Shown here in pieces: positions 46,285 to 64,000 of a DNA stretch of 64,000 nt. The notes under the pieces were generated by a model, which ran no database searches, was not told where the DNA came from, and worked only from the letters and a program-made list of their open reading frames with translations. Each line of letters starts with the position of its first letter. Within the stretch, counting starts at the first letter, position 1. Both the position numbers and the translations under genes were made by a program. This stretch comes from an uncultured archaeon (GTDB lineage Archaea > Thermoproteota > Nitrososphaeria_A > Caldarchaeales > Wolframiiraptoraceae): assembly GCA_938083505.1 (NCBI GenBank), contig CALKCF010000007.1:118715-182714 (forward strand), written 5' to 3'.

Positions 46285-46299
46285 TGGACCGGGCGGTAT
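46285..46299 (+). repeat. att-like direct repeat copy 1 (TGGACCGGGCGGTAT)
   Basis: Identical to 58623-58637; reverse complement resembles a tRNA-Ala 3' end. Confidence 0.85.
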
Positions 46300-46311
46300 G
46301 CAATTAAATAA

Positions 46312-46325
46312 TTAAGCGAATCCTT
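46312..46325 (+). repeat. Left inverted repeat (TTAAGCGAATCCTT)
   Basis: Exact reverse complement of 58600-58613. Confidence 0.85.
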
Positions 46326-46326
46326 T

Positions 46327-46900
46327 TTAGAGTTTTCTTATTTTTCCTGTTTGTGGTTGGTATATTTGGCCTTGTTGTGTTAGGCGCCATATGGCTGTTT
46401 CAACAGCCGCCTTTTCCGGGCTCTCCTCTTCATAAGCCCGTTGGACAACTTCTTCTATTGTTATTGTTTTATTTTGGAGGTTTTCCATGAGCCATTTCAT
46501 GGCTTGGCTTTAAGCCTTTAGTCTGTATTGTTTGGGTTTCCAAAGCTCTTTTCTGGGCGGGCTAGCTACCTCTGCTTGAATCGTTTGGGCGCTTACTGTT
46601 GTAGCCTGCGTTGTTTGCGGCTAGTAGTCCATTAGGGTTATGGTTGGCACGGCTTTCTCTTTCAAGAGTTCTGGCAGCTTCCTGTTTAGGCTGGCTTATT
46701 ATTCGCTTCATTTTTCTTGCTCTTGAAATGCTTGACCAGTAGAAAGCCTCGTCAACCGTGTCTTCGGCTATTAGGATTGTTACTTTTCCTGCCACGCGTC
46801 TTCCTGTTATGCCCCTGCGTTGTATGTAGCGTATCTCGCTTGGAACAGGCTCATAAAAGACTACGTGGTCAACTTCAGGAATGTCTAAGCCTTCCCCGTC
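46327..46900 (-). pseudogene. C-terminal fragment of Hef/FANCM-like helicase ending in a wHTH
   Basis: EGLDIPEVD.V.FYEPVPSEIR.IQRRG.TGR (motifs V/VI); frameshifted tail ..AIWRLTQQGQIYQP..GKIRKL. Confidence 0.75.
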
Positions 46901-47042
46901 CCCCGTAGCATTTGCCACAGAGCAGTTGAAGATTCAACAAGTCATCCGCATACAAGTGGAGATTCTCGGTGGAACCACAATTTTGACATTTACCGCCTAA
47001 CTTTTCCATTAGAAGCTGACAGACTCGCCTACTCACACGCAT
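46875..47042 (-). pseudogene. Degenerate HNH endonuclease remnant
   Basis: Hand translation ..LGGKCQNCGSTENLHL..NLQLLCGKCY; central HH segment deleted. Confidence 0.6.
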
Positions 47043-47437
47043 TAATGATCACTTCCTGTTAACGGTTTTTAACGGATAACGGGGGGAGGGGTACAGATGT
47101 AAAAATTTTCGATCTATTTAAAAGTATCCTTTAACATGCCAACATTGAAAAATCCGTACAATCCGTTACTTTTTTAAAAGAAGCCCAAAAAACTTCTTTC
47201 CTCACATTTCGCAACTCCGAATTTATCGAACTTTTTGTTTACACCGCAAATTCTACGAGAACATCGCAAGACTTAATAAACAAGGACAGACGAAAATCCG
47301 TTAACAACCGTAACATACGTAACACTAAGACTTAAGAAATAAGATTAAAAGGCATCGGCCATTCAATAACGCTCATTTAGCTTTCACGTATGTTAAATAT
47401 TTGTTCCGGTTTAAAACGTTATGCCGGCTGTTTCAAA

Positions 47438-48640
47438 CTATTGAATCACCTTTTTAATGACGTCAAACCGTTTAGGGTCTCCCTGTAGCACCCCAATCAT
47501 AATAACTAAAAAGTTCAAGAAGGTAGTTATCTTTGTTGCAATCGCCGCCAATAATCCGTGCTTCCACCCCATCACTTTCCCTATACTCCAAAACCTAAGC
47601 GCATACCATGAAGCCACAGATGCTAAACCAATAACGGATTGCTCCCAGGTGAGGTGTAAGAGTCCAACTAATGAAAGAAGAAGCCCCAATTGGGAAAAAG
47701 GATAGAAAACGAACGCGCAGAAGTGGACGAAAATAAACCTTAATGCATGGTTTAGAGGCAACATTCTTTTTATGTAAACGATGTTGAAGTTGCCCCATAT
47801 CCACCTTCTTCTCTGTTTCACCGCGTCTTTGAAGGAAAGAGGTGGAGTTATCAAGACAGGCTTATCCGAGTTATAAACCTTAAAGCCTGCAACCTCTGCC
47901 TTATGAAGCCAGTACATGTCCTCATTGCCCATTACAGGAACGTTCTCCAAAGTTTTGCCGTTGATGGGTTTAAATTCGTAGTCTAAGGCTTGCTCCACAT
48001 ACTTGTAATATATTTGAGATTCGCCGTGTCCATACAAAACCCGTCCAACATTAGTGAAGAAGTTGCAAGTGTGCATGCAAGTGTAGGGTCGTTCATAGTC
48101 AAGCAGCAGCCCAAACTTTGAAGTTGTCCTAGGCTTAATTGTCCCGACAACAACGTCTGCATCTACGCTTAAAGCGTCAAGTATTAATTCTCGGCTAACC
48201 ACTGAGTCGTCGTCGCTTTGTATCACCATGTACTTGGATGGAAGCAAACCTTTTTCAGCCAGTTGCAGCCTATACCGACGCGCATACTCTAAAGCTCTAG
48301 CTTTCACGTGGGCGAAACATTTGAAAGCTTTCGGGACAACGACTACGCGGTCAGCGTTGTATCTTGTCGGGTTGTCTCCTTCTTCAATCACTACCCAACA
48401 CTGCAACGGCAGAGGCAAATCATATTTGCGAACCGTGTCAAAAATTTTGTTAACACATTCAGCGTTACCAACCGTTGGAATTTGGAGGATTATTAGGTCT
48501 GCTTTGTCGTTATGGGGGTTAAAACGCTTAAACTTCTTTGCGCTAACAGCTCCAATAACTGCTTCCGCCAGAAAGAATAATGGAGCAAACCATGAAGCAA
48601 GAATTAACCATTTAACTATTTCAAAAATGATGCTTAACAT
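47438..48640 (-). CDS. Membrane GT2 glycosyltransferase (egghead-like)
   Basis: KARALEY, DDDS, ED, QRRRW, flanking TM helices. Confidence 0.85.
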   Translation of the reverse strand: MLSIIFEIVKWLILASWFAPLFFLAEAVIGAVSAKKFKRFNPHNDKADLIILQIPTVGNAECVNKIFDTVRKYDLPLPLQCWVVIEEGDNPTRYNADRVVVVPKAFKCFAHVKARALEYARRYRLQLAEKGLLPSKYMVIQSDDDSVVSRELILDALSVDADVVVGTIKPRTTSKFGLLLDYERPYTCMHTCNFFTNVGRVLYGHGESQIYYKYVEQALDYEFKPINGKTLENVPVMGNEDMYWLHKAEVAGFKVYNSDKPVLITPPLSFKDAVKQRRRWIWGNFNIVYIKRMLPLNHALRFIFVHFCAFVFYPFSQLGLLLSLVGLLHLTWEQSVIGLASVASWYALRFWSIGKVMGWKHGLLAAIATKITTFLNFLVIMIGVLQGDPKRFDVIKKVIQ

Positions 48641-49370
48641 TTTCGTTAACCATCTCCGCCGCTTCTAGAATTTTAGGGTTCAAACCGTTTCGCCGAAAAT
48701 CATTAATCAAATGTTTAACGTCTTTCGGTAGGCATCTGCCTCCGTAAGGTTTTCCAAAGAATTTTGTTCCCCATTTGCCGCCTTCCCATTCACCTAAAAC
48801 CTTCGCTGGGTCACATGCCTGTGCAACAGTTTTAATGTCGGCTCCTATCTTTTTGCAAAGTAGGTAAAGCTCGTTCCAGAAGCTTATGCTCACAGCCCTA
48901 AGCGAGTTGGTTGAAAGTTTTATCAGCTCGCTTGTCGTCGGATCTGTGCGGTAAACTGTTGTGGTTAAAGGGGCGTAGAGCCTTTCAAGCTGTTCTCCGT
49001 GCTTATGGCAGCATTCACCTATAACAATTCTTGAAGGGTTCACCACATCCTTCAAGGTGTGTTTTTCTCTGAGGAACTCCGGGTTGTGGCAGATGTGGCG
49101 CTTATATTTCTCCATTAAAGTTTTAGTTGTCCCCACTGGAACTGTGCTTTTAATAACGTAAAGTCCTTGAACTTCAATTTCAATTAACGTTTGCAAAGCT
49201 TTCTCCACCTCATGTTCAGGAGTGCAGATGAAGGTTGCGTCCACCTCTTTTTCGATTTTGTTTTTACCTTTGAACGGGTCATAGATGAACGTTTGGTGTC
49301 CCAGCTTCCGCATTAGGTACGCTTGTGCGGAGCCAACTACGCCGTAGCCGACAATTTGAATTTTCATCAC
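48621..49370 (-). CDS. Short UDP-glucose/GDP-mannose dehydrogenase
   Basis: GYGVVG, KSTVPVGTT, NPEFLRE, SE.IK, GG.CLPKD; no C-terminal domain. Confidence 0.85.
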   Translation of the reverse strand: MMKIQIVGYGVVGSAQAYLMRKLGHQTFIYDPFKGKNKIEKEVDATFICTPEHEVEKALQTLIEIEVQGLYVIKSTVPVGTTKTLMEKYKRHICHNPEFLREKHTLKDVVNPSRIVIGECCHKHGEQLERLYAPLTTTVYRTDPTTSELIKLSTNSLRAVSISFWNELYLLCKKIGADIKTVAQACDPAKVLGEWEGGKWGTKFFGKPYGGRCLPKDVKHLINDFRRNGLNPKILEAAEMVNENVKHHF

Positions 49371-49463
49371 ACTTCACTGACATATATTGTATGCGAAAAG
49401 TTTTAATAGGCTTTTCGCTGTGGCAAAACTCCCCGCTACGCCCCTCAAACAAAAAGAGGAAGA

Positions 49464-49712
49464 TTATAGGCGTAGGCATTTAGGGTTAGTTCTAATGGCT
49501 CGCCAAAAGGCTGGGCTTTTAGAAGCCATGTTAATGTCCCTTAACTGTTCATGGGTAATCCTTAGAATAACCCAATTGCAAAAGTAGAAGTCTTCACTAT
49601 CGTAGGTTTCATGGCTCTCGCTGTCATGCCATTTCATTAGCATATTAAGTAAAGCCCTTGTGTAAGCCCATAGGATATAACCACAATTTCGACATTTAAC
49701 CACAAAAGGCAT
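49464..49712 (-). CDS. Small hypothetical protein with N-terminal CxxC
   Basis: VKCRNCG; SD-like GGGGTTGG upstream. Confidence 0.5.
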   Translation of the reverse strand: MPFVVKCRNCGYILWAYTRALLNMLMKWHDSESHETYDSEDFYFCNWVILRITHEQLRDINMASKSPAFWRAIRTNPKCLRL

Positions 49713-49952
49713 GGCTAACCAACCCCTTTTAATGTTTGGGTGTAGTGGTTTAGAGTGCCACTCGATAAGCCCTTATTCCTGTGCACACAGCTTGAATTGC
49801 ATATACTCCTTCCACATTTCATAAACGTAGCCTTCCTTGAATGTTAGGAGGTAGCCCCTAACCCATTCGCCCTTCGAAGAGGCTGCAAATTTGCCTCCTT
49901 TGCTGAACCTCTCCAAAAATTTCAACCTCGAATGGGTAGGGAGCCCTCTCCA

Positions 49953-50796
49953 CTAACCTACACCCTTAAAGATTTCTACAGCTTTTGGAATTGAAACCTT
50001 CTCTTCCTCTGTTATTCCGCGGTAGAACTGGACTGTTGTGTCAAAACCTCGAGTGCCTAGCCACATACTTGCTTACAAGGTCTAAGGGGACCCCTCTGTT
50101 TCTCAGGCTTGTAATTCGCGAATGCCTCAAGATATGGGGCCTTAAATCTCTGCCCCGGAATTCTATCCCGGCCCTCTTGCAGTCCATCTTAAAAGCCATT
50201 TCAACAGCTCTCGCAGTTATCTCGAAAAGCTTCTGTTTCCCGAGAATATTGTCGTATTTTAGCAGCATTTCCTTGATCCATGGCTCAAGCTTGTATGTAG
50301 CCTTCTCCTCCCTTTTCTTCTTCAAAATATTGAAAGTGATTGTGCCTTTTTCGAGGTCCAAATCTTTCCTTGTTAGGGCTAATACTTCGCCTAGACGGCG
50401 GGCGTAAGCGTAGCATAAAGCGTAGATAATCCTGCGGATCGGCGAAGGCGTGTTGGTGATAAGCCTCGCAGCTTCATCATCCGTTAAGAAGTCAACCTCT
50501 CCAACATTGCGGGGCGGAATCCTCTTCTTCAAAAGTTTAAGCTTCTTCTCATCCACGTCTAGCATCATGATTTCAAAGTAGCTGAGAACATCATAGGTGT
50601 AGACGCCCAATGTGCTGCTGCTTAAACCACGCTTCAGCAGCTCGTCAATCCAGAGGTTAAGCGACTCAAGGCCTGGCTGCAAACCATTCTTCTCGAGGAA
50701 ACTGTCGTATTGTTTTAGGACTACTTCTTTCCGCTGTAAACATGATTTGGGATAGAGATCCTTAGCTCTAAACTTGAAGGTTTTAATGTCAAGCAC
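49953..50796 (-). pseudogene. Tyrosine recombinase/integrase, frameshifted before the catalytic Tyr
   Basis: R..E, HILRHSR, VARH; removing one T of T4 (~50043-50046) restores HSRFDTTVQFYRG.. Confidence 0.85.
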
Positions 50797-50831
50797 AATT
50801 ATTAAAATTTAATAAAGGGAATATAAAAATT

Positions 50832-51041
50832 TCAGCCCATGAGTTTCGCCAATTCTTCCTTCAGAAGCTTTCGCTCTTCTTCTGTGAAGACCTTTCTGAT
50901 TTCCTCTCGGACCTCATCCTTAACCGAGTCGCCTTGAACCAGAATCTTTGTTAGAAGCTCTATGCATATGGTTTTCTTGCTGTCCTCTTTTATGACGGCG
51001 CATACTCTGCGGGCTGTTTCGCGGGCCATCAATTCAATCAC
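50832..51041 (-). CDS. Small helical Cys-pair protein (paralog of next ORF)
   Basis: LM..E....VC..C...L.KILV.G shared with 51038..51247. Confidence 0.65.
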   Translation of the reverse strand: MIELMARETARRVCAVIKEDSKKTICIELLTKILVQGDSVKDEVREEIRKVFTEEERKLLKEELAKLMG

Positions 51042-51247
51042 TCAACACCCAGCTCCCTCAACCTCTCCTTAACGGTTTTCCTGCAGTCTTCCGGAAGCTC
51101 GGCTAAGGCTTCAAAGCCTTTGCCTTCCACGAGGATTTTGTGGAGAACCGCTCTGCACTTAGCCTTGTTCGCTTCTCCAACGGCTTCACAGACGTCCTCA
51201 ACAATTTCCTTAGACATCAGAACCTTGATCCCCTCCTCGTCGTTCAC
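51038..51247 (-). CDS. Small helical Cys-pair protein
   Basis: Coupled 4-nt overlaps with neighbours, SD GGAGGTG. Confidence 0.65.
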   Translation of the reverse strand: MNDEEGIKVLMSKEIVEDVCEAVGEANKAKCRAVLHKILVEGKGFEALAELPEDCRKTVKERLRELGVE

Positions 51248-51641
51248 TCCAACACCTCCTTTAATATTTTTAATGCTTTACGCTTAAAAGCTTCCGGCGG
51301 AGTCAAATACTCCTCAAGCCTATCCATCTTCAACTTTTCAGCCCTAAGCAATGTTTCGCCTAGGACTGTTGCCTCGCTTCCACGCTTCATCCTTCTAGGA
51401 CTGTGTTCAGGGATTCAGCAAAGCGGGTGCAGAAAGCCTCAGGCTTCTTTTCAGCCTCCCTTATAACCCTGTCAAAGAGTTTAAGGTAAACGTCATCCAT
51501 GTTTTTTATGCTGGCATAATACATCAAGTCCGTAAGCCACCTGATGGCTTCGCTTGCACGATCCTTGGATAAGGCCTCGAGGATTTTTGCTGTGGCCTCT
51601 AACAAGACCTGCTTAGGCTCAGCTTCCAATACGTTCACCAA
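51244..51641 (-). CDS. Hypothetical helical protein: 84-aa + 48-aa coupled ORFs, or one frameshifted gene
   Basis: ORF 51387..51641 followed by ATGA-overlapping 51244..51390 (MKRGSEATV..KEVLE). Confidence 0.5.
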
Positions 51642-51686
51642 ACAAGAATGGTGGAAACAAAAATAAAAATGCGTCGAATATGGCTG

Positions 51687-52136
51687 TTAGGCGTTCTCTG
51701 CTCCGATAATGATTATGTCGAAACTGAAGCTTGTGATGCCGCCTATGTTTGAAGCAACTGAAAGTGTTAAATCTGCTGATACGCTATCTCCAGGATCTGA
51801 AACTTGGTCTTGGCGGTTCTAACTTAAAGTCAGATAGTTTGAAGCTGACGATGGATTCCAGTTGTCGACTTCCATGCTCAGCCTAATTGGAACATTGCCT
51901 TCATTCTTCACGTAGACCGTGAACTGTTTACTTGAGCCTGGCTCCAGAAAGCCCCAATCGATATACGATACTGGAATGGTGCAACCGCTGTCGGAGTAGA
52001 CGCCTACACCAACAGCCTTTATATTCCCAACGCTGGAAATTATCCGCTTGGCAACAAGGGCTCCCAACACTGTTGCAACTATACATACAAGGGCGATTGC
52101 CAAAACCGTTGCCAAAGCGATTCTATGCATCGCCAT
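51687..52136 (-). pseudogene. Secreted beta-sandwich surface protein with in-frame TAG
   Basis: Signal peptide, IDWG.LEPG, KNEGNVP; frame continues 43 codons past TAG at 51819-51821. Confidence 0.7.
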
Positions 52137-52409
52137 GTTCTTCACCAGCAAGAGCTTAGCAGAAAAAGAGGGGGAATGCACCAGGCGCCAGGCAAGTTGT
52201 CTACATGGCTTCAAAGGCTGCCTTCATGTTCGAGAAAAGCTTCTCAAACACGAGCTGGTAGACTACCTGATAACATCCAGGATAATTAAGCCTCTCGTCA
52301 ACCTCCTCAACATTTTAATAAAAGCCAGAGAAGCCGAAATCTACAAAGAAAAAGAGAAACTCGTAGAAATCTTCTCAAAAATCATTTAATCACTCTGACA
52401 AATCGTCCT

Positions 52410-52940
52410 TCATTTTAATTCTTGCTCAATAAGGTGCCAAGCGTCAAGAAACTCGGTGTAGTTTGTTAGTTCATTATCAATGCTAGCTGTTACTCTTTCA
52501 TCCCAAACGTTTGAACCTCCAAAATGGAAGCAGAAGGAGTATACTCCTCTCTTTCCTGGGTCTTTAACCGTCATTCTCTTCTCGAGTTCAGCGCTTGGAA
52601 CAATGAGGAATTTGTTTTCGAAACGACTTATCCTGTGTTCTCCAACAAGCGGCAGGTAGGTGATGAAGACATAAAAATCAACTTTGCCTCTGTTTTTAAG
52701 GAATTTTGCCCTCTTGATTTGATGCCAACTGTGTCCCACATGCCCGCTTTTCCATCTGCGACCAATGTAATAACGTGACTCTTTAACCTGGATTCCCACG
52801 TGCTTATCACCTTTAACAACCAGCAAATCTAAGCCAACATCACGCACAGGAAAATACACCTCACACTTCAGCCTTTTCATGATTTCCTCTGCAACTATGC
52901 ATTCACCAGGCTCTAAAGACCAAACGTTTCTAACAGGCAC
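52410..52940 (-). CDS. PD-(D/E)xK restriction-endonuclease-like protein
   Basis: GE..V..E, D.G.DL, IQVK.SR. Confidence 0.75.
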   Translation of the reverse strand: MPVRNVWSLEPGECIVAEEIMKRLKCEVYFPVRDVGLDLLVVKGDKHVGIQVKESRYYIGRRWKSGHVGHSWHQIKRAKFLKNRGKVDFYVFITYLPLVGEHRISRFENKFLIVPSAELEKRMTVKDPGKRGVYSFCFHFGGSNVWDERVTASIDNELTNYTEFLDAWHLIEQELK

Positions 52941-53176
52941 TTACACCACAAAAAACAAAGTGTTAAAGCATTATAAATAAATTCTATCGATACTTTCGGT
53001 TAGACGTTACTAACAGAACACATAGAAAAGCAAGCAATTTAAACATAAAATCGCAAAGCAAGCATGTTTTAGGCTTAGAATAGATGCTATGGGAAACGAT
53101 AGAAACCCTTCACAATTTTTATCCAATATTAATTTAATAAGGCAACATAAGGAGTATTGGAACCGTGCATAAACCT

Positions 53177-53899
53177 TCATGGTCGATACTTAGCTAACCA
53201 TGGGATAAGTTCCGCGAGTGTTTTTATGCGATTTCCGGTGAAATCAGGATATCTGTCTTCTCTGTCTATGAGCAGCGCCTCCATTCCAGTGTTAATGGCT
53301 CCTTCGTAATCATCTTTTGGATCATCCCCTACATAGATGCAGCTTCCGGTTTTAATGCCCATTAAAGAAGCTGCATGTTCGAAGATTCTGCGGTCTGGCT
53401 TCTTTATTCCGAACTCTACAGAAGTAACTATAACTTCAAACGAGTTGTTAAGGCCTGCTTTGGCTAAATTCTGGTAGACTAGGCTCGGATAATGGGTGTT
53501 GCTTATCAGTCCCAGCCTATGACTTTTCGAAAGCTGTTTAATAACTCTTGTGCTTTCATCAAAAGGCTTGACACCTCGATTCCATTCCCATAAAAATGTC
53601 TCCGCCAGCAGCTTTACAAAGCTAGAAGTAGGAGGTTTAGACGGGAAATTTTCCCTCAAGAAATTTTTGACAAAATCGAAAAAATGAAACTCTACGCAAT
53701 CAACATAGGATTCCGCCTCCATCCGACTTAAGCAGTCTTCCCAACTCCGCTTGAAAACCTCAAGTTCAACTTCATAACCGTATTTTTTGAGGAGTCGCCA
53801 GGTCCGTTTACCCCCATCCACAAATAGGGATTCAGGGACACTTAGCAATGTTCCAAATAAATCAAAGATGAGCACTTTTTTCATGTTCTCCACTTCCAT
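53177..53899 (-). CDS. HAD-IA family hydrolase
   Basis: FDLFGTL, ISN, KPD, VGD....D. Confidence 0.9.
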   Translation of the reverse strand: MEVENMKKVLIFDLFGTLLSVPESLFVDGGKRTWRLLKKYGYEVELEVFKRSWEDCLSRMEAESYVDCVEFHFFDFVKNFLRENFPSKPPTSSFVKLLAETFLWEWNRGVKPFDESTRVIKQLSKSHRLGLISNTHYPSLVYQNLAKAGLNNSFEVIVTSVEFGIKKPDRRIFEHAASLMGIKTGSCIYVGDDPKDDYEGAINTGMEALLIDREDRYPDFTGNRIKTLAELIPWLAKYRP

Positions 53900-54025
53900 A
53901 TATTATTGTTAGGAAACTTACACTAGGAAAATAAACTTAACGAATAACAGCAGCCTCGATTTATAGACTTTCTATGAGGATTTTGTAGTTGTTAAAGGAA
54001 GGAAACTAAATATGAGTGAAAGTCA

Positions 54026-54541
54026 TCATGGGTTTAGGTGTTGAGTTTGCGAGAGTTTTGGCAAGGGGATGGCTGGAACTGAAAGGATCTCCCCCTTAGC
54101 CATTATGTATTCGAACCCTCCCCCCACCTCCTCAACCCAAAAGCCGAGGGCTACTGCCGGCTTAAGCTTCTTCGCCTCCCTCATGCTTTTCCATACTGTA
54201 ATTGAAGTGTCAAACTCGATTTTGCCAGCCCTGTTAGGCAGCTGTGGAAGGTGTTCCGCCAACTTTCTAGCTAGCTCATTAACGCTTTCGGCTGTAAGTC
54301 CAACGGTTGCTAGAGGCGCAACCCTCTCAATTATCCGCCTAATCACAACTTCTGGTATTCTAAACTCCCTGACAAGCTCCCCAATTCTTTCGGGCGGGAC
54401 GGCTGGCGCGGCTGGAGCGCCAATCCTCTCGGATATTGCCTGCAAAAGCTTTAACTGCTGCTCCTCAACCCTAAGAAGCAAAACGATTAGCTCGTCCACC
54501 CTTGTGAGAACGTCTAAAAGCCTTTGAATGGGGATCTCCAT
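54026..54541 (-). CDS. Hypothetical coiled-coil/Pro-Ala protein, probably 3'-truncated
   Basis: Last gene of the co-oriented cluster. Confidence 0.55.
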   Translation of the reverse strand: MEIPIQRLLDVLTRVDELIVLLLRVEEQQLKLLQAISERIGAPAAPAVPPERIGELVREFRIPEVVIRRIIERVAPLATVGLTAESVNELARKLAEHLPQLPNRAGKIEFDTSITVWKSMREAKKLKPAVALGFWVEEVGGGFEYIMAKGEILSVPAIPLPKLSQTQHLNP

Positions 54542-54567
54542 TGCAACCTTTCCGCTAGTTCAAGTTT

Positions 54568-54906
54568 TTACAGGTTGTAGGCTTGCAGCATAACTGAAAT
54601 AGTGTTTGCGCTGGCTACTGCCTTGATGTTTTGGCCAGGATTCATGGTGAAAAGGGGCGAATCCACAGACCTGTAAACGTCTAAAGTGGCATAGGCGTCT
54701 AAAGTTATGGGTGGAAGTGTCCTCTCAACCGTTGCTTCCCGTTCAATTGTAAGCGTCAGCGTGTTTGCAGTCGCCGCGTTGTTATGTATCAGCATACCAT
54801 AGACTTTTCGTGCAAACTTGTTAGGCGGAACCGTATTGTTTGTCAATGGAACCTTGCTTGTTCCGACTTCCGCTTCCATTTCGAAAGTGTCTTCGGGCTT
54901 GGCCAA
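54568..54906 (-). CDS. Hypothetical beta-rich protein (putative virion component)
   Basis: Alternating beta-strand pattern, 2-nt gap to the upstream gene. Confidence 0.6.
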   Translation of the reverse strand: MAKPEDTFEMEAEVGTSKVPLTNNTVPPNKFARKVYGMLIHNNAATANTLTLTIEREATVERTLPPITLDAYATLDVYRSVDSPLFTMNPGQNIKAVASANTISVMLQAYNL

Positions 54907-54908
54907 AC

Positions 54909-55628
54909 CTAGCTTCCTCCTGCTAAAACTCTCTCTATTGTGGCTTTGTCAACCTCTGTTGGGGGAGCCCATTCCTCTGGCACTGTCCACGTGAAGTGTC
55001 TGAGTCCTCCAACGGTTAGGAACCTGCATGGTGGCTTCTGCCTCAGCATTCCCTCGATCACGTTTCTGTTTGTTATTTGTATGGTGTCGTAGCCTGCTCC
55101 AAGAATGCGCATGCTTGGCCTTATGGGTCTTCCAGAGTCGTTCTTAAGCCCAATTTCTATGCTTAGCTTATGGTATAGAACGCATTCAGTAGCCACTGTG
55201 GGATTGTCATAGGGGCTCAGCCATCCCGGAATGTAATCGCGTTTGTCTCCAACTTTTGGAGGCTCAACCTTGTAGCCCCAGCCTGTCTGTGGCGTGCCCG
55301 CTGGAATACTCCTGTAAAGCCATATCTCGCTTGGTCTAATGCCAAATGCGAAATGCAGTATCCTGAAGGGCCTCTCCTCCCACACGGCCAGTATGTCAGG
55401 CTCCTCTCCCAGGGCTGTTTCTCCCATGATTTTGAAGTCAACTGTTTCTCCCTCGGGAATTTCCGGAAGCTCGCCGTCATAGGTTCTGTGAAGGGGATAT
55501 CTTCGCATGACACGGAAAAAGTAGAGGGCGAATACAGGCTCTTTAGCCACAGCCTTTGGAAGAATAATAGCCAAGTTCATGTTCTCGTCAAAGATAGACT
55601 CAACTATAGGCTTATTCAACTCAACCAT
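54909..55628 (-). CDS. Hypothetical beta-rich protein (candidate jelly-roll capsid protein)
   Basis: 239 aa, SD GGAGG, no TM; fold is inference only. Confidence 0.55.
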   Translation of the reverse strand: MVELNKPIVESIFDENMNLAIILPKAVAKEPVFALYFFRVMRRYPLHRTYDGELPEIPEGETVDFKIMGETALGEEPDILAVWEERPFRILHFAFGIRPSEIWLYRSIPAGTPQTGWGYKVEPPKVGDKRDYIPGWLSPYDNPTVATECVLYHKLSIEIGLKNDSGRPIRPSMRILGAGYDTIQITNRNVIEGMLRQKPPCRFLTVGGLRHFTWTVPEEWAPPTEVDKATIERVLAGGS

Positions 55629-55697
55629 ACAGTTTTTAACCTCCGTTCAGAAAAACTTCGGGAGTTCATTGTTTTGTTCAGCTCCCTGCAAGGGAAA

Positions 55698-55871
55698 CTA
55701 GCCCTTCTCAGAAGTGGTGGTCACGGTCACTGTTACTGGCGCGAAATCGTAGGCGGCTGTATCGGCTTCTCCGGCTGTAACTCCCCCATGCGTATGCGAT
55801 GGCAGGTCAACAGTAACCGTTACTGAATGTTTATGTTGCCTGTGCCCTGCAAGGTATCCGGGTTTTGGCAT
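55698..55871 (-). CDS. 57-aa HxH-motif spike/needle-like protein (missed by ORF track)
   Basis: MPKPGYLAGHRQHKHSVTVTVDLPSHTHGGVTAGEADTAAYDFAPVTVTVTTTSEKG; SD AGGAGG. Confidence 0.7.
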   Translation of the reverse strand: MPKPGYLAGHRQHKHSVTVTVDLPSHTHGGVTAGEADTAAYDFAPVTVTVTTTSEKG

Positions 55872-55883
55872 TTATTCAGCCTC

Positions 55884-56582
55884 CTATGCGCCTGGTCTGG
55901 CTAGTGCTGGCACATCTTTGCCGTAGCCTATCCATACGCCAACCGGAAACGCGTAGGTTGTAACAGTAGCGCCTGCGGTTTTCGACTCAACCTTTCCATC
56001 AATGTCTAACGTTGCATCGGCGATAACTGGGTGTGGAAACTCGAAAACCTGCATATCCGTAGCCTTCATGATAAGGGTGGCTTCAATGGGGTACTGTGGA
56101 ACTCCATCCACATCCACAACTTGAACAGCCGTCAAGGGAGCTGTGGGGCTAAGCTCTATTATGTCCGTGATGATGAAGATCTGCTTTGCCGGAATCGTTA
56201 GTTTGCCGGCTGTTGGGGGAATAATGTTGAAGGTTCCAACGTATTTCCCAGCGGCAAGCGTTATATCCCTTTCATACGTGAAGTTTTCGCCTATGTGTTC
56301 TGGTCGGAGCTGCATCAAAACAATGTCGTCGCTCTTAGCATATTGAAGCGGCATAATGTTACGCTTCTCCTTCTCCTTAAACTCGGCTAAGACCTGGCAG
56401 ACAAGCTCAAGGTTCCTCGTCAAACCCGGAACCTCAAAAGTTCTCTCCGAAATATTCAACGTCCTAATCTTCGCCAACTCATGCTTCACAATGTCGTATT
56501 CCGTCCCAAAAGGCTCAACCTTGCGGCTGAGAACAGACTTGGCATCTATCTCGAGCAACCTCTTTAACTCTTCAATTTCCAT
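55884..56582 (-). CDS. Hypothetical protein, helical N-terminus + beta-rich C-terminus (candidate capsid protein)
   Basis: 232 aa, first gene after an AT-rich promoter-like gap; fold is inference only. Confidence 0.55.
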   Translation of the reverse strand: MEIEELKRLLEIDAKSVLSRKVEPFGTEYDIVKHELAKIRTLNISERTFEVPGLTRNLELVCQVLAEFKEKEKRNIMPLQYAKSDDIVLMQLRPEHIGENFTYERDITLAAGKYVGTFNIIPPTAGKLTIPAKQIFIITDIIELSPTAPLTAVQVVDVDGVPQYPIEATLIMKATDMQVFEFPHPVIADATLDIDGKVESKTAGATVTTYAFPVGVWIGYGKDVPALARPGA

Positions 56583-56654
56583 ACAACCAACTCCATTTAA
56601 CAGCTGGAAAAGAATATTAAAATGATGGTATCAGTAAGTATTGGTTAGACTAAA

Positions 56655-56816
56655 ATGGCTGAGGAGCTGGTTTTCACGGCTCAGGTTCAAAAGATCTACA
56701 GAATAGCCATACCGAGAACAATTTATAAGGCGTTGGATATTAAGCCCGGAGACTATGTTGAGGTTAGAGTAAAGAAGGTCAGCATCAAGCCTAAGGGATA
56801 CCCGCTAACTCGCTGA
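56655..56816 (+). CDS. AbrB/MazE/SpoVT family DNA-binding protein (missed by ORF track)
   Basis: MAEELVFTAQVQKIYRIAIPRTIYKALDIKPGDYVEVRVKK.. Confidence 0.85.
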   Translation: MAEELVFTAQVQKIYRIAIPRTIYKALDIKPGDYVEVRVKKVSIKPKGYPLTR

Positions 56817-56839
56817 AACTTAAATTTCTAGCTTTGACA

Positions 56840-57172
56840 TCAGCGGCTCATTACGTAGCCTGTCTTCGGCTTCTCCTTTTCAGCCCCTGAAAGCTGATAC
56901 TCGGCTTTTCTCTCTACGCTGGGCAGGATATCCTCCAGCTTAGGGAGGGTTGGGAGTTTACCGAGAACCTCAGGCAGCTTAGGCGCCCTTGGAACAACAG
57001 CCTCAGGAGCCTTTCCAGCCTCTAAGGAAGTTTGAAGTTTCAAGAGGGTTGACTGCGGACCTGGAGGCAGCTCCACCTTCAAGGCTTCTTTAACCAAGCT
57101 TTCAAACTGGCTTTCAGGCGCTGCCAAAAGCTGCGTGAAGGATGATATTTTGGGAAGCTCCTGCGGAGGCAT
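56840..57172 (-). CDS. Pro/Leu-rich hypothetical protein
   Basis: Abuts the upstream stop; repeated LP.L motifs. Confidence 0.6.
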   Translation of the reverse strand: MPPQELPKISSFTQLLAAPESQFESLVKEALKVELPPGPQSTLLKLQTSLEAGKAPEAVVPRAPKLPEVLGKLPTLPKLEDILPSVERKAEYQLSGAEKEKPKTGYVMSR

Positions 57173-57424
57173 CTACTTCTTCACTGCCTTTGTAGGCACG
57201 TCGAGGGCTTGGGCTATACCCTCGCCTATGTTTTCAATGGCAGTTCCAATACTCTTTGCAATGCTGTCAGCCACCCTGTGGGGACCAGCAGAGCCCAACG
57301 GCCCCTTATCTATAGCTGAAGACACAGATTCGGACAGCTCCTTTGGAACACGTACTAGGCTGTCTAAAACGTCGTCCGCAACCCTATGTGGAGGCTTAGC
57401 CGTTAAATCGGGGAGTTCGGGCAT
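57173..57424 (-). CDS. Hypothetical protein with internal PHRVAD repeat
   Basis: PPHRVADDVLDSL / GPHRVADSIAKSI. Confidence 0.6.
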   Translation of the reverse strand: MPELPDLTAKPPHRVADDVLDSLVRVPKELSESVSSAIDKGPLGSAGPHRVADSIAKSIGTAIENIGEGIAQALDVPTKAVKK

Positions 57425-57436
57425 TCAACCACCAAA

Positions 57437-57772
57437 TCAATAATAAACGTTCATATTTTTAATTTTTTCTATTCCGTAAAAACCTTTAATGCAGCTAAAA
57501 ACTGAGGGCAGCCACTTATTCTCCTTAACGAAGCGCTCGTACTCTTCAGGCTTCATCAAACGCTTAAGCTCGGCGTAAGCCATATCCGACGCCACGTCGC
57601 CGGCGAATGGTATGACGTCTGCGAGGTCGTCCATCAAAGCGTAGCGGAGAACCTCCCTCTGCCTATCATCAAGCTTTGGCATGGGTTTCGGAGGAAAATC
57701 TGGGAGCTCAACGCTTGGGAGCTCAACCTCTAAAAGCGGAATTTTAAACTTTTCCAAAATTTTTATGGGCAT
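57437..57772 (-). CDS. Hypothetical protein (possible late frameshift in a T5 run)
   Basis: Pro-rich N-terminus, D.IPF.GD motif; alternative end PSVLAALKVFTE*. Confidence 0.55.
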   Translation of the reverse strand: MPIKILEKFKIPLLEVELPSVELPDFPPKPMPKLDDRQREVLRYALMDDLADVIPFAGDVASDMAYAELKRLMKPEEYERFVKENKWLPSVFSCIKGFYGIEKIKNMNVYY

Positions 57773-57785
57773 ACTGCAAGCCTAC

Positions 57786-58538
57786 TTATTGAAGCTTAGA
57801 CCACGTTAAAAGCCCGTAGCCTTTATCGGCAGATTTCTCTCCGAAGCGAGCCATCCTAGCCTTAACATCTTCAATATTGCTGAGTATGCCCCTGTCTATG
57901 GCTAAAGCCGCAAGCCCTGAGCAATGGGGTGTAGCCATCGACGTGCCAATCATCAAGTCGAAGCCGTCTGGAACCAAGTCGTAGAAGGCGTCGTACCATA
58001 GGCTCACCGCAGCTACGATTTGGCTTTCTCTGTCTCCGCCTATGCCGGCTACATCTGGCTTCAAGAAGTTTCCCCCGTATTTTTGGTAGTCCCTGTCATA
58101 GGCGTCCTTGTTATCCCTGTACCATCTTGCTTGCGGCCCACGCGATGAATAGCTTGACGTTTCCATTGTCTTCCAGTCTACGGCAGCCACACATAAAACG
58201 TATGGGCTGGCTCCCGGGCTGTTTATGCTCCATTCCTCGCCGTCGTTTCCAGCCGCGACTATGAAGTTTGTGCCATACTGCCTGTAAAGCTTCTCAGCCA
58301 AAACACATTCGGGATCCTCTTCAACGCTTCCCTCCAATGGACCGCCGAGACTCATGTTCACAACCTTACAGCCTTTCACTGCGCACATCTCCATAGCCTT
58401 CATGATCTGGAAGCTTGAGCATGGACCAAATGCGGTGAACACTTTAACATGGTAGCTGGATGGAGCCAAAGCCACGGGAATGAAGGTTCCATACCGTGAG
58501 AGGCATGGTTGACCGAAGGCGCATGAATGGGCCCAGCT
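57786..58538 (-). pseudogene. Subtilisin-like S8 peptidase, C-terminal extein (5' part deleted)
   Basis: VNMSLGG, AAGN, SSRGP, KPDV, GTSMATPH; catalytic Asp/His region absent. Confidence 0.85.
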
Positions 58539-58607
58539 ATTATGAACTATGAAACCGCTGGCCGAATAGTTGCCATATGTTGTATCCGCTAAATCGTAGA
58601 AGGATTC
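58539..58607 (-). other. Intein C-terminal splicing region (blocks F/G)
   Basis: In frame with the peptidase: ESFYDLADTTYGNYSASGFIVHN|S. Confidence 0.8.
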
Positions 58608-58613
58608 GCTTAA
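58600..58613 (-). repeat. Right inverted repeat
   Basis: AAGGATTCGCTTAA = reverse complement of 46312-46325. Confidence 0.85.
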
Positions 58614-58622
58614 AAAATTAAG

Positions 58623-58637
58623 TGGACCGGGCGGTAT
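58623..58637 (+). repeat. att-like direct repeat copy 2
   Basis: TGGACCGGGCGGTAT identical to 46285-46299. Confidence 0.85.
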
Positions 58638-58837
58638 CTACACTTAATTGGGTGCGAGTCCACATTGTACGGAGTAATTTGAAAGGATTCAGGGAATGCG
58701 GTCGAAAAAGCGAGGGTCTAGGCTTCTCCATATAGCTGAAGGAAGCAAATGAAAAGACTGCTCGAGGTGCTGACGAAAATTTTTATCATCCACCGAATGC
58801 CATCATCGGTGAAGCGTTAGGGAGGGAATAAGGGGAG

Positions 58838-61800
58838 TTGAGGAAACTCCTTAGCTTAGGAATAATCTTCCTGCTTCTTACTTCAATCCTAGCGAATTTT
58901 GTTCCCGCTCTTCCCATTGAAGCTCAACAGCAGAGCTATGGATGGAAAGATGAGTTTAACTATCGAGGTTTGGACGAGGTGCAGGAAATCAAGCTTGTTA
59001 ATGATAGGCAATTTACTTTTGATGGCGGAGATGATTTTTATCCATTATGGAGCCCCGATGGATCAAAACTCCTCTTCTTGCGCGCAGTACCTTCTCTTGA
59101 GGAATGGAATGCTTCTTTATGGATTTCAGACCTTAAGGGAAAATTAATTGGCCCAATGATGGGAACGGTACTCACTGATGTTGGATGGAGTCCAGATAGC
59201 ACCAAAATCGCTTATTCGTCACTCAAAGTGAGGTATTCAGTCAGGTATTCTTGGAACTATTTTTGGGATGAATTACACATTTTTGATACTTCGACATCGG
59301 AGGATAAGGTAATTCTGACTACAGGAAAGAATGAGACGATTTCTTATCGTCTTTTAGCCCCTACAAGAAGTTTGGATTGGTTACCAAGAGGTGGAGGAAT
59401 AGTGTTCACACATTTCAGCATGTTTCGGCCTCAATTACCATTTTTCGCGAAAAGTCAAATCAACATCATTAGTGAGGATGGAAAATATCTTAAAACTCTT
59501 GTGGAAAGGGATGTGAGAACCGACCTCAGCATTATAAGTGACCTATTTGTTAGCAGTAGCGGGGATATTATTGGATTTTCAGAAATTCGTTTCAGTGAAT
59601 TGCCTCTGCAACCATACTCCGAGTCGATTAATCGACTATGGCTTATGAATGTTGATGGAAGCAATCAGCAATTAATTTTAGAGCTTCCAAGCCATCCAGG
59701 CCTTTTTTCCCCAATAAAATCTATCAGCTTCTTAGATGAATCCAAGATACTCATTGAAAGATGGAATATTAGACTTCTTGAGGAGCCGCCTGGGAGAATG
59801 GATTTTGAAAAATTCGAAATCGGCATCATCGACATAAGCACCAAGAAATTTACATCACTACTAACGTTTTCCCTTGAAACAGTTCCTTTTAGCTTTATAG
59901 GAATTTCAAGAAAACAACCTTCATTTAACAATAAATTCCTTTATGCAAACATAACAACAACCGGTGATTACTCTGTGGAATATAGCATTTGGTTATTTGA
60001 TGTTAAAGACCATACTAAGAAAGTATTACTGTCTAAACCATTTAAAAGAGAGTGGTTAGAGAAATGGTCATTTCTCGTGCTATTATTTCTTTTTCACGGT
60101 GTTAGCGTAAGTCCTACTGGAGAAAGAATAGCCTACTTATATCCAGATGGTGAAGGTGAGCATATGAAGATCTGGGTAGCGGAGGTGGAAGGGCTTGCAC
60201 CTAAAGTAACGAGGCTTAATGTAGAAGTTGTTGATCCAAGTCCTCCAGATGGTGCTAGGAGAAGCCCACCAATAACTTTTAGGGCAAGGGTAACTTCTGA
60301 TGGCCAGCCTGTTCGGGATGCCTTCGTGACCTTCTACATGGGCGATGGCGGAACCAGTTATATTGGACAATCGAACATAAGAACGGATGCTAATGGCTAT
60401 GCTGAGGTTAGGGACTGGGATCCAAAATGGGATCATGAAGTAACATTTAGATGGTGGGCTGAAGCATGGAAGGAAGGATATGAAAGCGGAATATCGGAAA
60501 AGAGAAGTCTAATTTATGTTCCCGCATCTAAATTAGACATTACAGATATCGCTAGTGGTCCTTTTGGAGTTATAATCTTTAAGGTTAAGAATCAAGCGAC
60601 AAAAACGGTAAAGATAAACTCCTATGAGATATATGTAAATGATAAGAAGACAGGATGGAATGATAATGTATCTGAGGAATTGCCTAAAGGAGAAGAATAC
60701 TTATTTGTTACTCCCTTTTCTTTTAGCAGTTTAACTGAGGTAACGAAGGTAAAAGTAATAGTAAACTACAATGGGAAAGATAGTTGGTTAGAAGAGAGTT
60801 GGTCTGAGAGGGACGTTGAAGAAAGATTATTAAAGGCTAGAGATTATTTAAAGAATTTAGGTGTAAGGGATATACCTGAGGACATCCCAAAAATAAGCTA
60901 CCCAGCCAACGTGAAGCAACCATACTATGATTATGGAACAGATACCATATATGTACCAGTTAATTATACCCAGTCTGACTTTGTAATTTTGCACGAATAT
61001 GGACATTTTATCGAAGATAAGTGGTATTTGTTTAATATGCCAGATGATTGGGAGGGAGATTGCCAGAGAATTGGGAAAAAGAATGCTATGAAGGAGGGAT
61101 GGGCTCATTTTCTTGCCTCCCTTGCTCGAAATTCTCCAAAAATTCTTGAGGCGCAGCCTGTTGGAATTAATATGGATTTTGAAGACCCATTCTCTAATAC
61201 AATCTTTTGTGCTCATACAATGGATAAACGGCAAGAAAACGAAGCATGTGTTGTTTCAGTTGCAGGTATTTTCTGGGATCTTTATGACCCTGCTAATGAG
61301 GAGTTCGATCAACTTCAAATTTCACCAGAAGAGCTTGTATCTTTAATAAAAGAGAGTATGAAATGGAATAGTGAAGGGTTTAAAACATTTTACATCAATT
61401 TTAACGCCAAATATAGAGGAACCGATTTACCAGAAAAGCTTGATAAGTTATTACTGGAAGGATATGGCATCAGCTATATCAACCTGAAAACAGAATTTCT
61501 TGTAGCTTCACTTCACTCACCGGCAAATCTTCATGCATATGATTCTGAAGGTAAACATGTAGGAGTGAATGAACGGGGTGAAATAGAGATAGAGATACCG
61601 AATTCGTATTATACAGGTCCTGATGCTGAACCGGAGGAAATTATAATTTTCGGTCAAAGCGAGGGGATAACTTTTAAAATTGAGGGAATCGCTGAAGGTA
61701 ACTTCAGCCTATTAATAGAGCAGAAAAAGGATAATTACATAAAAAGAGTGGAGTACAGGAACATTTTTATCACAAACTCTACATATGCCATAGTTGAAAT

Positions 61801-62071
61801 AGGTCTTTCCAACCCTGAATATGTGATGTCCTTAGATTATGATAAAGATGGGATAATAGATGAGAAAAAGGTACCAAATGTGACAGAGGGGACTCTTCCT
61901 TCAGAAACGGTTGGACCATTTTTACTTTTGGAATGCTTTTATGTCTTTTTGACAATCGCTACAATAATCATTGCAGCTTTTTTAATACTAAAATTTAGAA
62001 AGAAGACTAAGATCAAGTCTGATAAAAACCGAGTAAATGAATTTAAATTCATCCTTTTAAGGACTTACTAA
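58838..62071 (+). CDS. Membrane-anchored surface protein: TolB-like propeller, Ig-like domains, zinc metallopeptidase
   Basis: Signal peptide; WSPDG/WSPDS repeats; HEYGH...EGWA; DYDKDG; C-terminal TM + basic tail. Confidence 0.75.
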   Translation: MRKLLSLGIIFLLLTSILANFVPALPIEAQQQSYGWKDEFNYRGLDEVQEIKLVNDRQFTFDGGDDFYPLWSPDGSKLLFLRAVPSLEEWNASLWISDLKGKLIGPMMGTVLTDVGWSPDSTKIAYSSLKVRYSVRYSWNYFWDELHIFDTSTSEDKVILTTGKNETISYRLLAPTRSLDWLPRGGGIVFTHFSMFRPQLPFFAKSQINIISEDGKYLKTLVERDVRTDLSIISDLFVSSSGDIIGFSEIRFSELPLQPYSESINRLWLMNVDGSNQQLILELPSHPGLFSPIKSISFLDESKILIERWNIRLLEEPPGRMDFEKFEIGIIDISTKKFTSLLTFSLETVPFSFIGISRKQPSFNNKFLYANITTTGDYSVEYSIWLFDVKDHTKKVLLSKPFKREWLEKWSFLVLLFLFHGVSVSPTGERIAYLYPDGEGEHMKIWVAEVEGLAPKVTRLNVEVVDPSPPDGARRSPPITFRARVTSDGQPVRDAFVTFYMGDGGTSYIGQSNIRTDANGYAEVRDWDPKWDHEVTFRWWAEAWKEGYESGISEKRSLIYVPASKLDITDIASGPFGVIIFKVKNQATKTVKINSYEIYVNDKKTGWNDNVSEELPKGEEYLFVTPFSFSSLTEVTKVKVIVNYNGKDSWLEESWSERDVEERLLKARDYLKNLGVRDIPEDIPKISYPANVKQPYYDYGTDTIYVPVNYTQSDFVILHEYGHFIEDKWYLFNMPDDWEGDCQRIGKKNAMKEGWAHFLASLARNSPKILEAQPVGINMDFEDPFSNTIFCAHTMDKRQENEACVVSVAGIFWDLYDPANEEFDQLQISPEELVSLIKESMKWNSEGFKTFYINFNAKYRGTDLPEKLDKLLLEGYGISYINLKTEFLVASLHSPANLHAYDSEGKHVGVNERGEIEIEIPNSYYTGPDAEPEEIIIFGQSEGITFKIEGIAEGNFSLLIEQKKDNYIKRVEYRNIFITNSTYAIVEIGLSNPEYVMSLDYDKDGIIDEKKVPNVTEGTLPSETVGPFLLLECFYVFLTIATIIIAAFLILKFRKKTKIKSDKNRVNEFKFILLRTY

Positions 62072-62681
62072 CTTACTACAATTAAAAGTGAAAGCATATC
62101 TTGCATTTATTTGCTTTACTCCTCCTTCTCCCCGAAGGATAATGTAACACCTCATCGCGTCTTCACTCTTAGGGAATTCTATACTACAATTTTCACTATT
62201 ATTTCCCAATACACATTTGCTACAGTAAGATAATACTACAGGTCTGCAGGAATTCCAATGTTCTTTATGAATGTGTGTAAATCGTATTCTAATAACAAAT
62301 CCCAAAATAAAAATGGTCGTGAGAAAAATCACATATATCAAGGAAACTTCAGGTCTAATTGTTTTTAACTTTCTGTAAATTATGACTAAACTGCAAGCGA
62401 CAATGTATGTAGAGAAAAACCAAAAAGGAGGAAGTATGAACGATTTTTTATGCATTTCACTTAATACAGGAACTCCAAATATTAAAAGTAACACTGATGT
62501 CTCGATTATTAGTAAAAAAGTAAATGCTTTTATAAAAATATTGTTGATATTATCACCTTTATCCACAAATAGCCAAAAATTCACAGAAGAAAAAAATGAT
62601 TCCAAAATTTAATAAGAGGAGAAATACTATGATCTTGAGTAAATCTGGCTTTAAGAACTCCTTAACGGCTTTCCAACCCAT
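62057..62681 (-). CDS. Membrane protein, probably frameshifted near the 5' end
   Basis: ORF 62057..62605 has 3 TM segments and a Cys-rich tail; upstream ATG 62681 (MGWKAVKEFLKPDLLKII..) is in another frame. Confidence 0.4.
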
Positions 62682-62940
62682 AAACTCATCTAATTAAAAA
62701 TTACTTTAAAATTATAAAAATAGTGATGACTCCCTATATCCATTTGTTTGATGCATTCCTTAATTGAGGCATATTATATCCTATTGTGATCAAAATTAGT
62801 TTACCACGCTCTCAACATTCAAAACAATAAAATTCTAGTTAAATCGAATATGACTGCCTTACCAAGAAATGTTTTAAAGTATGTGATAGCTCATGAAATG
62901 ATACTGTCCGGAATTTCTTAGTGAAAGACAAACTATTATC

Positions 62941-63624
62941 ATGGAATGGTTAAAGAAACTTGTCTCCAAATTGTTTAAATGGAATAGAGTTCCTCTAGAA
63001 ACTAAGTTGCAAGCGATAATAGATTGGCTTGAATGCTCCAGCTACAGGAAAGCCTCTAAAAAGCTTAGGTTGCAAGGTAAAAGGGCGAGCAAATCTTCCA
63101 TTTGGGAATGGGTCAATAAGCTTGCTAAAGCAATAGAGCTAAGAATTCCAAAAAAGGAGAGGGAATTTGTTGCCATGGATGAAACTTGCTTCAAAGCCAA
63201 TGGAGCTAAAGTCTTCATCTACTCTGCTTTGGATGTTGAGGAAAGAATTTGTCTTGGAGCTAAGGTATTTACCTCCAGGAATTATTTTACCACTAGCCTT
63301 TTCCTTGAGAAAGTTATGGTAGTATGCAAGAATAAGCCCACTTTCCTTGTTGATAAGGGTCCTTGGTATAAAGAGGTTTTTGAAAGCAGGCAAATTCCCT
63401 ACCAACATGTAACCTGGGGGAAGAGAAACCTGGTTGAGCGCTTCTTTGGTAGCTTAAAGCAAAGAACCAGGTTATTCTTCAACAACATCAATGTTAACTT
63501 CAAGCTTTTGCTTAAGCGCATGGAAGCTGGACTAAGAGATGGGGTAGCTATGCAGAGAATTGACCTCTTCCTAAAGCTATTTGTACATTGGTTCAATGAA
63601 ACAGGAAAGCCTAGAATGCCCTAG
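62941..63624 (+). CDS. IS6-family DDE transposase
   Basis: SYR..S, W.WV, DET..K.NG, DKGPWY, RN.VER.F..LK.R. Confidence 0.9.
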   Translation: MEWLKKLVSKLFKWNRVPLETKLQAIIDWLECSSYRKASKKLRLQGKRASKSSIWEWVNKLAKAIELRIPKKEREFVAMDETCFKANGAKVFIYSALDVEERICLGAKVFTSRNYFTTSLFLEKVMVVCKNKPTFLVDKGPWYKEVFESRQIPYQHVTWGKRNLVERFFGSLKQRTRLFFNNINVNFKLLLKRMEAGLRDGVAMQRIDLFLKLFVHWFNETGKPRMP

Positions 63625-63796
63625 CTGTAAAAGAAAAATTCCGGTGCAGGAGCTAGAGTTTATTCTAGATGGCTTAATCTGGGATCAAAAGGAGCAGAGA
63701 GTAAAGTTCCCATTTCCTGAGAAAAGGATGAAAGATATAATACGTTGTTTTCGTTGCCCTTTTTGTAAAGCTGAAATTCCAGTTGAGAAAGAATAA
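63596..63796 (+). CDS. Zinc-ribbon protein inside IS6
   Basis: CPSC...CPFC; ends 12 nt before the right TIR. Confidence 0.6.
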   Translation: MKQESLECPSCKRKIPVQELEFILDGLIWDQKEQRVKFPFPEKRMKDIIRCFRCPFCKAEIPVEKE

Positions 63797-64000
63797 ATTT
63801 TATCATTCAATTCCGGACAGTATCAATATTCGTTAAGTTGAATTTAAATCTTTGAAAGGATGCTTGAGTACTTCTCCATTCTCATCATTTTCCCTCAGGC
63901 TGAATAAGCCAAGTCATCCAGCAAAGCTCTATGGGCATATAACCACAAGCCAAAACAACTTCTTCAGCTTTTTAATGAATTCAATATCATCGTTAACAAA

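Follow-up and report, generated by a model that had tools for sequence, protein, structure and literature searches.

Predicted jelly-roll proteins in a probable decayed archaeal provirus point to an undescribed lineage of temperate tailless viruses

Introduction

What is encoded by a compact cluster of small genes in the genome of an uncultured Caldarchaeales archaeon, most of which resemble no known family? The cluster occupies positions 54026-58607 of a stretch of 64,000 nucleotides (assembly GCA_938083505.1, contig CALKCF010000007.1), which was analyzed at its full length and is referred to as the window; the host genome comprises 1.15 Mb and is 98.5% complete. Names carried by homologues of its ribosomal protein L1 place this hot-spring host in the Caldarchaeales (Aigarchaeota), and a Methanomethylicia host is rejected, there being no mcrA. 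An earlier note, based on the sequence alone, had suggested a virion module with paired capsid proteins of the Halopanivirales type and a maturation protease. Here, we propose, with a probability of roughly 0.75, that the cluster holds the capsid genes of a defective provirus, one that belongs to a hitherto undescribed lineage of archaeal viruses that are temperate, tailless and icosahedral.

Results

All open reading frames (ORFs) named in the earlier note were found at the given place and in the given orientation. The note had recognised no cellular family besides the subtilase and AbrB, and these two alone match Pfam or PHROGs. Lengths are given in amino acids (aa).

57786-58607, minus strand: dead fragment of an S8 subtilase (PF00082, E 1.4e-21; the 229-aa ORF spans 57786-58475)
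56840-57772, minus strand: three small helical, Pro-enriched proteins (110, 83 and 111 aa), conserved in the close clade
56655-56816, plus strand: AbrB/MazE-type regulator of 53 aa, divergent from the putative capsid genes (PF04014, E 1.4e-5)
55884-56582, minus strand: 232-aa core protein, major capsid protein candidate, with an N-terminal helical arm (residues 1-72) and a predicted single jelly-roll (87-220)
55698-55871, minus strand: optional His-rich (HxH) protein of 57 aa, encoded between the genes for the two large proteins
54909-55628, minus strand: 239-aa core protein, capsid protein candidate, with a predicted single jelly-roll (residues ~34-189) and N- and C-terminal extensions
54568-54906, minus strand: 112-aa core protein, directly downstream of the 239-aa gene
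54026-54541, minus strand: 171-aa ORF with an N-terminal amphipathic helix, a shortened version of the variable gene that comes first downstream of the triad

The triad consists of the 232-, 239- and 112-aa genes, in that order. AlphaFold2 (AF2) models and fold searches predict a single jelly-roll for both the 232- and the 239-aa protein. The top structure match of the 232-aa model is the capsid chain of SPV1 (Sulfolobus polyhedral virus 1, Portogloboviridae; PDB 6oj0), N-terminal helix included, while the capsid proteins of SH1 and HCIV-1 match more poorly. The earlier proposal of paired capsid proteins is supported as far as the predicted folds are concerned; a pair of the Halopanivirales type is not established, the nearest structure being that of SPV1. 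VP16 and VP17 of P23-77 are absent among the fold-search matches listed, which does not exclude likeness, and Foldseek matches to VP2 of infectious bursal disease virus (E 3e-5, TM 0.3) are read as generic jelly-roll likeness. Neither sequence searches against PDB, PHROGs and INPHARED (tblastn) nor structure searches against BFVD (Foldseek) and the ESM Atlas returned a clear match, and the homologues of the large proteins, 32 for the 232-aa and 84 for the 239-aa protein, are all unnamed. Since profile-profile comparisons among the three triad proteins revealed no homology (probability <1%), gene duplication is not shown by sequence. The predicted complex of the two large proteins gave an ipSAE of 0.00, a value that carries no weight either way.

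The triad is conserved far beyond chance, as is evident from the numbers of homologues, the fixed gene order and low ratios of non-synonymous to synonymous substitution (dN/dS). In loci taken from genomes and metagenomes, a few of which are duplicates, the 232-aa gene immediately precedes the 239-aa gene in all testable cases (36/36), and the 112-aa gene follows directly in 50 of 53. Values of dN/dS of ~0.03-0.2 against four relatives show the triad to be under selection. Profile searches reach 51 clusters, and the lineage was found at about 60 loci. Even a distant locus, L115, retains the layout, with a membrane protein, a divergent regulator, a 263-aa protein, a small protein and a 268-aa protein that matches the 239-aa profile (E 2.6e-23). 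The genes after the triad are variable and include matches to tail-fibre/virion PHROGs (E 3.9e-12), ConA/DUF2341 lectins and beta-helices. Upstream of the triad, loci L035, L039, L048, L049 and L054 carry small basic helical families of 70-105 aa (F13/F14), often paired and devoid of Pfam or PHROG matches, which are possible nucleoprotein candidates.

The module is part of a larger island of 12.35 kb (46285-58637) that also contains an integrase gene (50041-50796). Features outside the module are as follows; att denotes attachment site, and G061 is a metagenome-assembled genome (MAG) of the Bathyarchaeia.

46285-46323, plus strand: left att site, 37/39 match to attL of the 56-kb G061 island; 15-bp core followed by inverted arms
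49407-52256, minus strand: integrase arm with an 82-aa ORF, the tyrosine integrase and 69-, 69- and 48/84-aa ORFs, showing DNA identity to G061:C4
52242-52389, plus strand: 3' remnant of the 111-aa F25 gene of the element, fused across a ~16.8-kb deletion by microhomology
52410-53899, minus strand: island cargo, a 176-aa ORF (nuclease-like by eye) and a 240-aa HAD-like hydrolase, both named by inspection only
58600-58637, plus strand: right att site, 37/38 match to attR at tRNA-Ala(GGC) in G061

The 15-bp att core at 46285 recurs as a direct repeat at 58623-58637 and is the reverse complement of the 3' end of tRNA-Ala. Corresponding sites bound the 56-kb island in G061, which ends in tRNA-Ala. 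DNA identity between window and G061 amounts to 94-96% over the module and 92-96% over the integrase arm. The window integrase clusters with integrases from module-bearing contigs, and the 239-aa protein of the window is sister to its G061 homologue (support 99/93). For the housekeeping genes next to the G061 island, however, identity to the orthologues of the window genome drops to 31-50%, and ribosomal protein L1 shares 44% identity between the two genomes. At contig level, these comparisons of sequence indicate recent movement across class boundaries, between Bathyarchaeia and Caldarchaeales. None of 60 relatives, among them six from the genus of the host, matched the 239-aa profile, and the 232-aa profile was found in 2 of 401 genomes of the phylum. 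With att repeats, a tyrosine integrase and this sporadic distribution, the island has the properties of an integrated mobile element. The homologues sit in sporadic mobile elements, not in stable operons; an origin as a stable cellular operon, an outcome that would have spoken against the earlier note, is rejected. Since a second element-type end follows the right att core (58638-64000), islands seem to be stacked in tandem. At G000:C1:101672-103123, an integrase of 443 aa comes after tRNA-Ala(CGC) and is 60% identical to the tRNA-adjacent one in G061.

The window copy is a relic that is unable to make virus alone. In the contig as assembled, the integrase arm abuts F25 at 52242-52256 as a result of the ~16.8-kb deletion, the integrase is truncated (251 versus 280 aa), and the putative capsid block is inverted relative to the integrase arm, with breakpoints at 54077 and 58607. 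The 171-aa ORF is shortened (188-191 aa in relatives), homology ending at 54075-54079, and the 111-aa ORF carries a +1 T frameshift compared with its 100-aa relatives. The triad is intact. The subtilase breaks inside the right att arm, at 58607, and all that remains of it is the C-extein, preceded by ~20 residues from the end of an intein. The PF00082 assignment therefore stands for a dead fragment rather than an intact enzyme: the Ser motif is kept, while an alignment with the enzymes of L007 (intein-bearing) and L013 (intein-free), two relatives that illustrate the variable presence of the intein, shows that the catalytic Asp and His were lost with the N-extein. An active maturation protease in the window copy, as had been suggested, is rejected. 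Nor does the subtilase count as a core assembly gene, given that the enzyme of the window is dead and that no more than ~11 of the 25 distinct long loci have one.

A search for intact syntenic copies led to the island in the G061 MAG; scans of IMG/VR yielded none. In G061 and close relatives, a replication/repair arm (RadA, primase, methylase, ligase), the integrase arm and a ParA/Mrp ATPase are followed by SCP2, a winged helix-turn-helix (wHTH) protein, a UbiA prenyltransferase, subtilase, the three small proteins, the regulator and the triad, and then by variable putative spike genes, a small hydrophobic ORF that appears holin-like by eye, and ParB. Intact relatives span ~35-63 kb and encode integrase, primase, ligase and PCNA. 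The cargo at 52410-53899 has no DNA match to G061 or L075-L077 and was not found in intact relatives. Matches listed for the 50 ORFs of the att-bounded G061 element include no terminase, portal or HK97 capsid, which define Caudoviricetes, and no FtsK-HerA ATPase (Pfam/PHROGs, best 25 families; Walker-A scan). An unclassified 317-aa P-loop ATPase is encoded only in a distant 62.8-kb relative, with PCNA and integrase downstream; as a query it was not found in G061-G063, G000 or other loci. This relative is represented by two contigs of 62,864 and 62,838 bp that are 99.99% identical and have the gene 16.6 versus 8.7 kb from the end, which, judged from the permuted contig ends alone, fits a circular molecule. 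Genes of the UbiA type are present in 11 of 25 distinct long loci. They are paired in one clade (L053:118-3101, L040, L049), one of each pair being closest to digeranylgeranylglyceryl phosphate (DGGGP) synthase families, and L053 also carries a geranylgeranyl reductase. All lipid-enzyme matches score below curated equivalog cut-offs, and a virus-borne archaeal lipid pathway is a candidate assignment. A conserved imperfect palindrome of 19-20 bp that lies past the integrase arm and again in the interval from ParB to F25 (L078:16944 and L079:15798 in G061; also L005, L013-L015, L019, L075-L077), deleted in the window, is a candidate parS or operator.

Among the other module genes, the 112-aa protein shows, by alignment, the beta-strand pattern of a minimal jelly-roll; in the ESM Atlas it lies next to viral clusters (score 0.96), with recognition below the threshold, and it may form pentons or vertices. 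The family of the 171-aa ORF is a further candidate for spikes or vertices. The HxH protein (families F7 and F4 between the two large genes, dN/dS ~0.07 against L013) is missing from some loci and has longer repeat forms of 144-153 aa in other relatives; it could be a metal-stapled mini-spike. An AbrB or ribbon-helix-helix (RHH) regulator occupies the same position in most relatives. The three small proteins, previously termed Pro-rich, are only modestly enriched (13.6, 9.6 and 9.9% Pro), have no transmembrane segment that we could find and may be internal or scaffold proteins.

No CRISPR spacer matched the element; the host genome has only a 3-repeat stub, and the genome-wide DNA searches, which score 2-3 candidates per genome, are insensitive. 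A CRISPR-like repeat array adjoins the triad in one metagenomic locus (L055:1709-2652). Further island cargo at 46562-49370, named by eye, comprises a Hef-like helicase fragment, a GT2-like glycosyltransferase and a short nucleotide-sugar dehydrogenase. Elsewhere in the window, a low-GC gene at 58838-62071 encodes a secreted-looking protein of 1077 aa that, by eye, contains TolB-like propeller repeats and that has a membrane anchor at its C-terminus; it is followed by an IS6-like transposase (62941-63624). A protein with wHTH and ATP-cone, resembling a degenerate class III ribonucleotide reductase, is encoded at 37110-38918.

Discussion

For the intact element, we infer the following course of particle formation. 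It would integrate by tyrosine recombination, here in islands that target tRNA-Ala, and one relative at least seems to be circular. The divergent AbrB/RHH regulator would control the late operon. The 232- and 239-aa jelly-rolls, made in the cytoplasm, would form the shell, with both acting as major capsid proteins or one as the major and the other as a minor one. The five-fold vertices would be capped by the 112-aa minimal jelly-roll, and spikes and receptor-binding parts would be contributed by the HxH protein and by products of the variable genes downstream. By analogy with SPV1, an internal lipid membrane is likely, aided by the element-borne UbiA prenyltransferases, SCP2 and geranylgeranyl reductase. 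The close intact relative yielded no packaging motor, so the genome would probably enter the particle without one, by co-assembly as proposed for SPV1.

A narrower version of this viral reading, nested in it, is that we are dealing with true Halopanivirales (Singelaviria), with a duplicated major-capsid heterodimer pair and an FtsK-HerA ATPase that the close clade has lost or that complete genomes encode at another place. The two adjacent, capsid-sized single jelly-rolls, predicted by AF2 and constant in order, agree with this. However, matches of the SH1/HCIV-1 type rank below SPV1, among generic matches, the intact close relative lacks a match to the FtsK-HerA family among its 50 ORFs, and the 317-aa ATPase, used as a query, was not found outside the distant relative. 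We regard the assignment as unlikely. Still less probable in our view is that the jelly-rolls are non-viral cargo of an integrative plasmid-like element, forming a nanocompartment or filament tied, for example, to lipid-modifying enzymes: the triad is constant, whereas 11/25 loci carry such enzymes as an optional extra, signal peptides and transmembrane segments were not found, the downstream genes resemble virion fibres and lectins, and the ESM Atlas neighbours are, as a weak indication, viral clusters.

That the cluster encodes minor structural or tail proteins of a virus with heads and tails is suggested by weak matches to tail-protein PHROGs downstream and by the Atlas neighbour clusters, of which the few members with an assigned phylum are labelled Uroviricota. 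It is nevertheless highly improbable, given that the matches listed for the 50 ORFs in the intact element include no terminase, portal or HK97 capsid; terminase matches lie on other contigs. One of these, a terminase pseudogene with four in-frame stops (G000:C6:180577-181182), belongs to a separate decayed tailed provirus, and a link to the module is rejected.

The proposed provirus lineage would work like a virus of the Portogloboviridae/Singelaviria type, membership in neither being established. SPV1 possesses an internal lipid layer and lacks an ATPase for packaging (PMC8459092, PMC8812541). In contrast to Portogloboviridae, with circular genomes of ~20 kb devoid of recognisable replication or integration proteins, the lineage has elements of ~35-63 kb with integrase, att sites, ParA/B and lipid enzymes, and two larger (~230 aa) adjacent jelly-roll genes plus the 112-aa one; sequence similarity was not detected, nor was a VP1-like nucleoprotein identified. 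A temperate life style and a pair of neighbouring single jelly-roll proteins, similar in size, are shared with Halopanivirales, for which we compared Sphaerolipoviridae SH1 and HCIV-1, Simuloviridae SNJ1, Matsushitaviridae P23-77 and the proposed Thermococcales 'Kalaviridae' (PMC12934983); the AbrB/MazE-type switch recalls SNJ1 (PMC12642351). By description, the proposed Thermococcales 'Dandaviridae' and 'Shabalaviridae' (PMC12934983 supplement) resemble it in an S8 peptidase adjoining the capsid gene, AbrB, beta-helix/DUF2341 receptor-binding genes and several jelly-roll genes in a row. Viruses described for the same host groups, Bathyarchaeia (PMC10848311) and Caldarchaeales (bioRxiv 10.1101/2025.08.23.671958), are of head-tailed, filamentous/rod and spindle types, with no mention of jelly-rolls. 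The cited literature on viruses of Bathyarchaeia, Caldarchaeales and Thermococcales contains no matching family, and the lineage may be hidden among families of mobile genetic elements listed as lacking known capsids.

No tailless jelly-roll virus has been described for Bathyarchaeia or Caldarchaeales in the cited literature on their viruses. The triad provides a new marker for the lineage, because the latter is invisible to sequence searches of Pfam, PHROGs and PDB yet occurs at ~60 loci. Virus-borne prenyltransferases with a lipid carrier would be unusual, as would near-identical copies in hosts with housekeeping proteins that are 31-50% identical. The window copy is only a relic, and the value lies in the intact relatives. 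According to Krupovic et al., SPV1 precedes both the duplication of the jelly-roll capsid gene and the capture of a packaging ATPase (PMC8812541). It is a tentative idea, and rather doubtful at present, that the lineage represents the missing step from SPV1 to Halopanivirales, with a duplicated SPV1-like pair, no motor and its own ether-lipid enzymes, moving between archaeal classes. A two-gene lineage without a motor, if true, would directly test the proposed order of these events.
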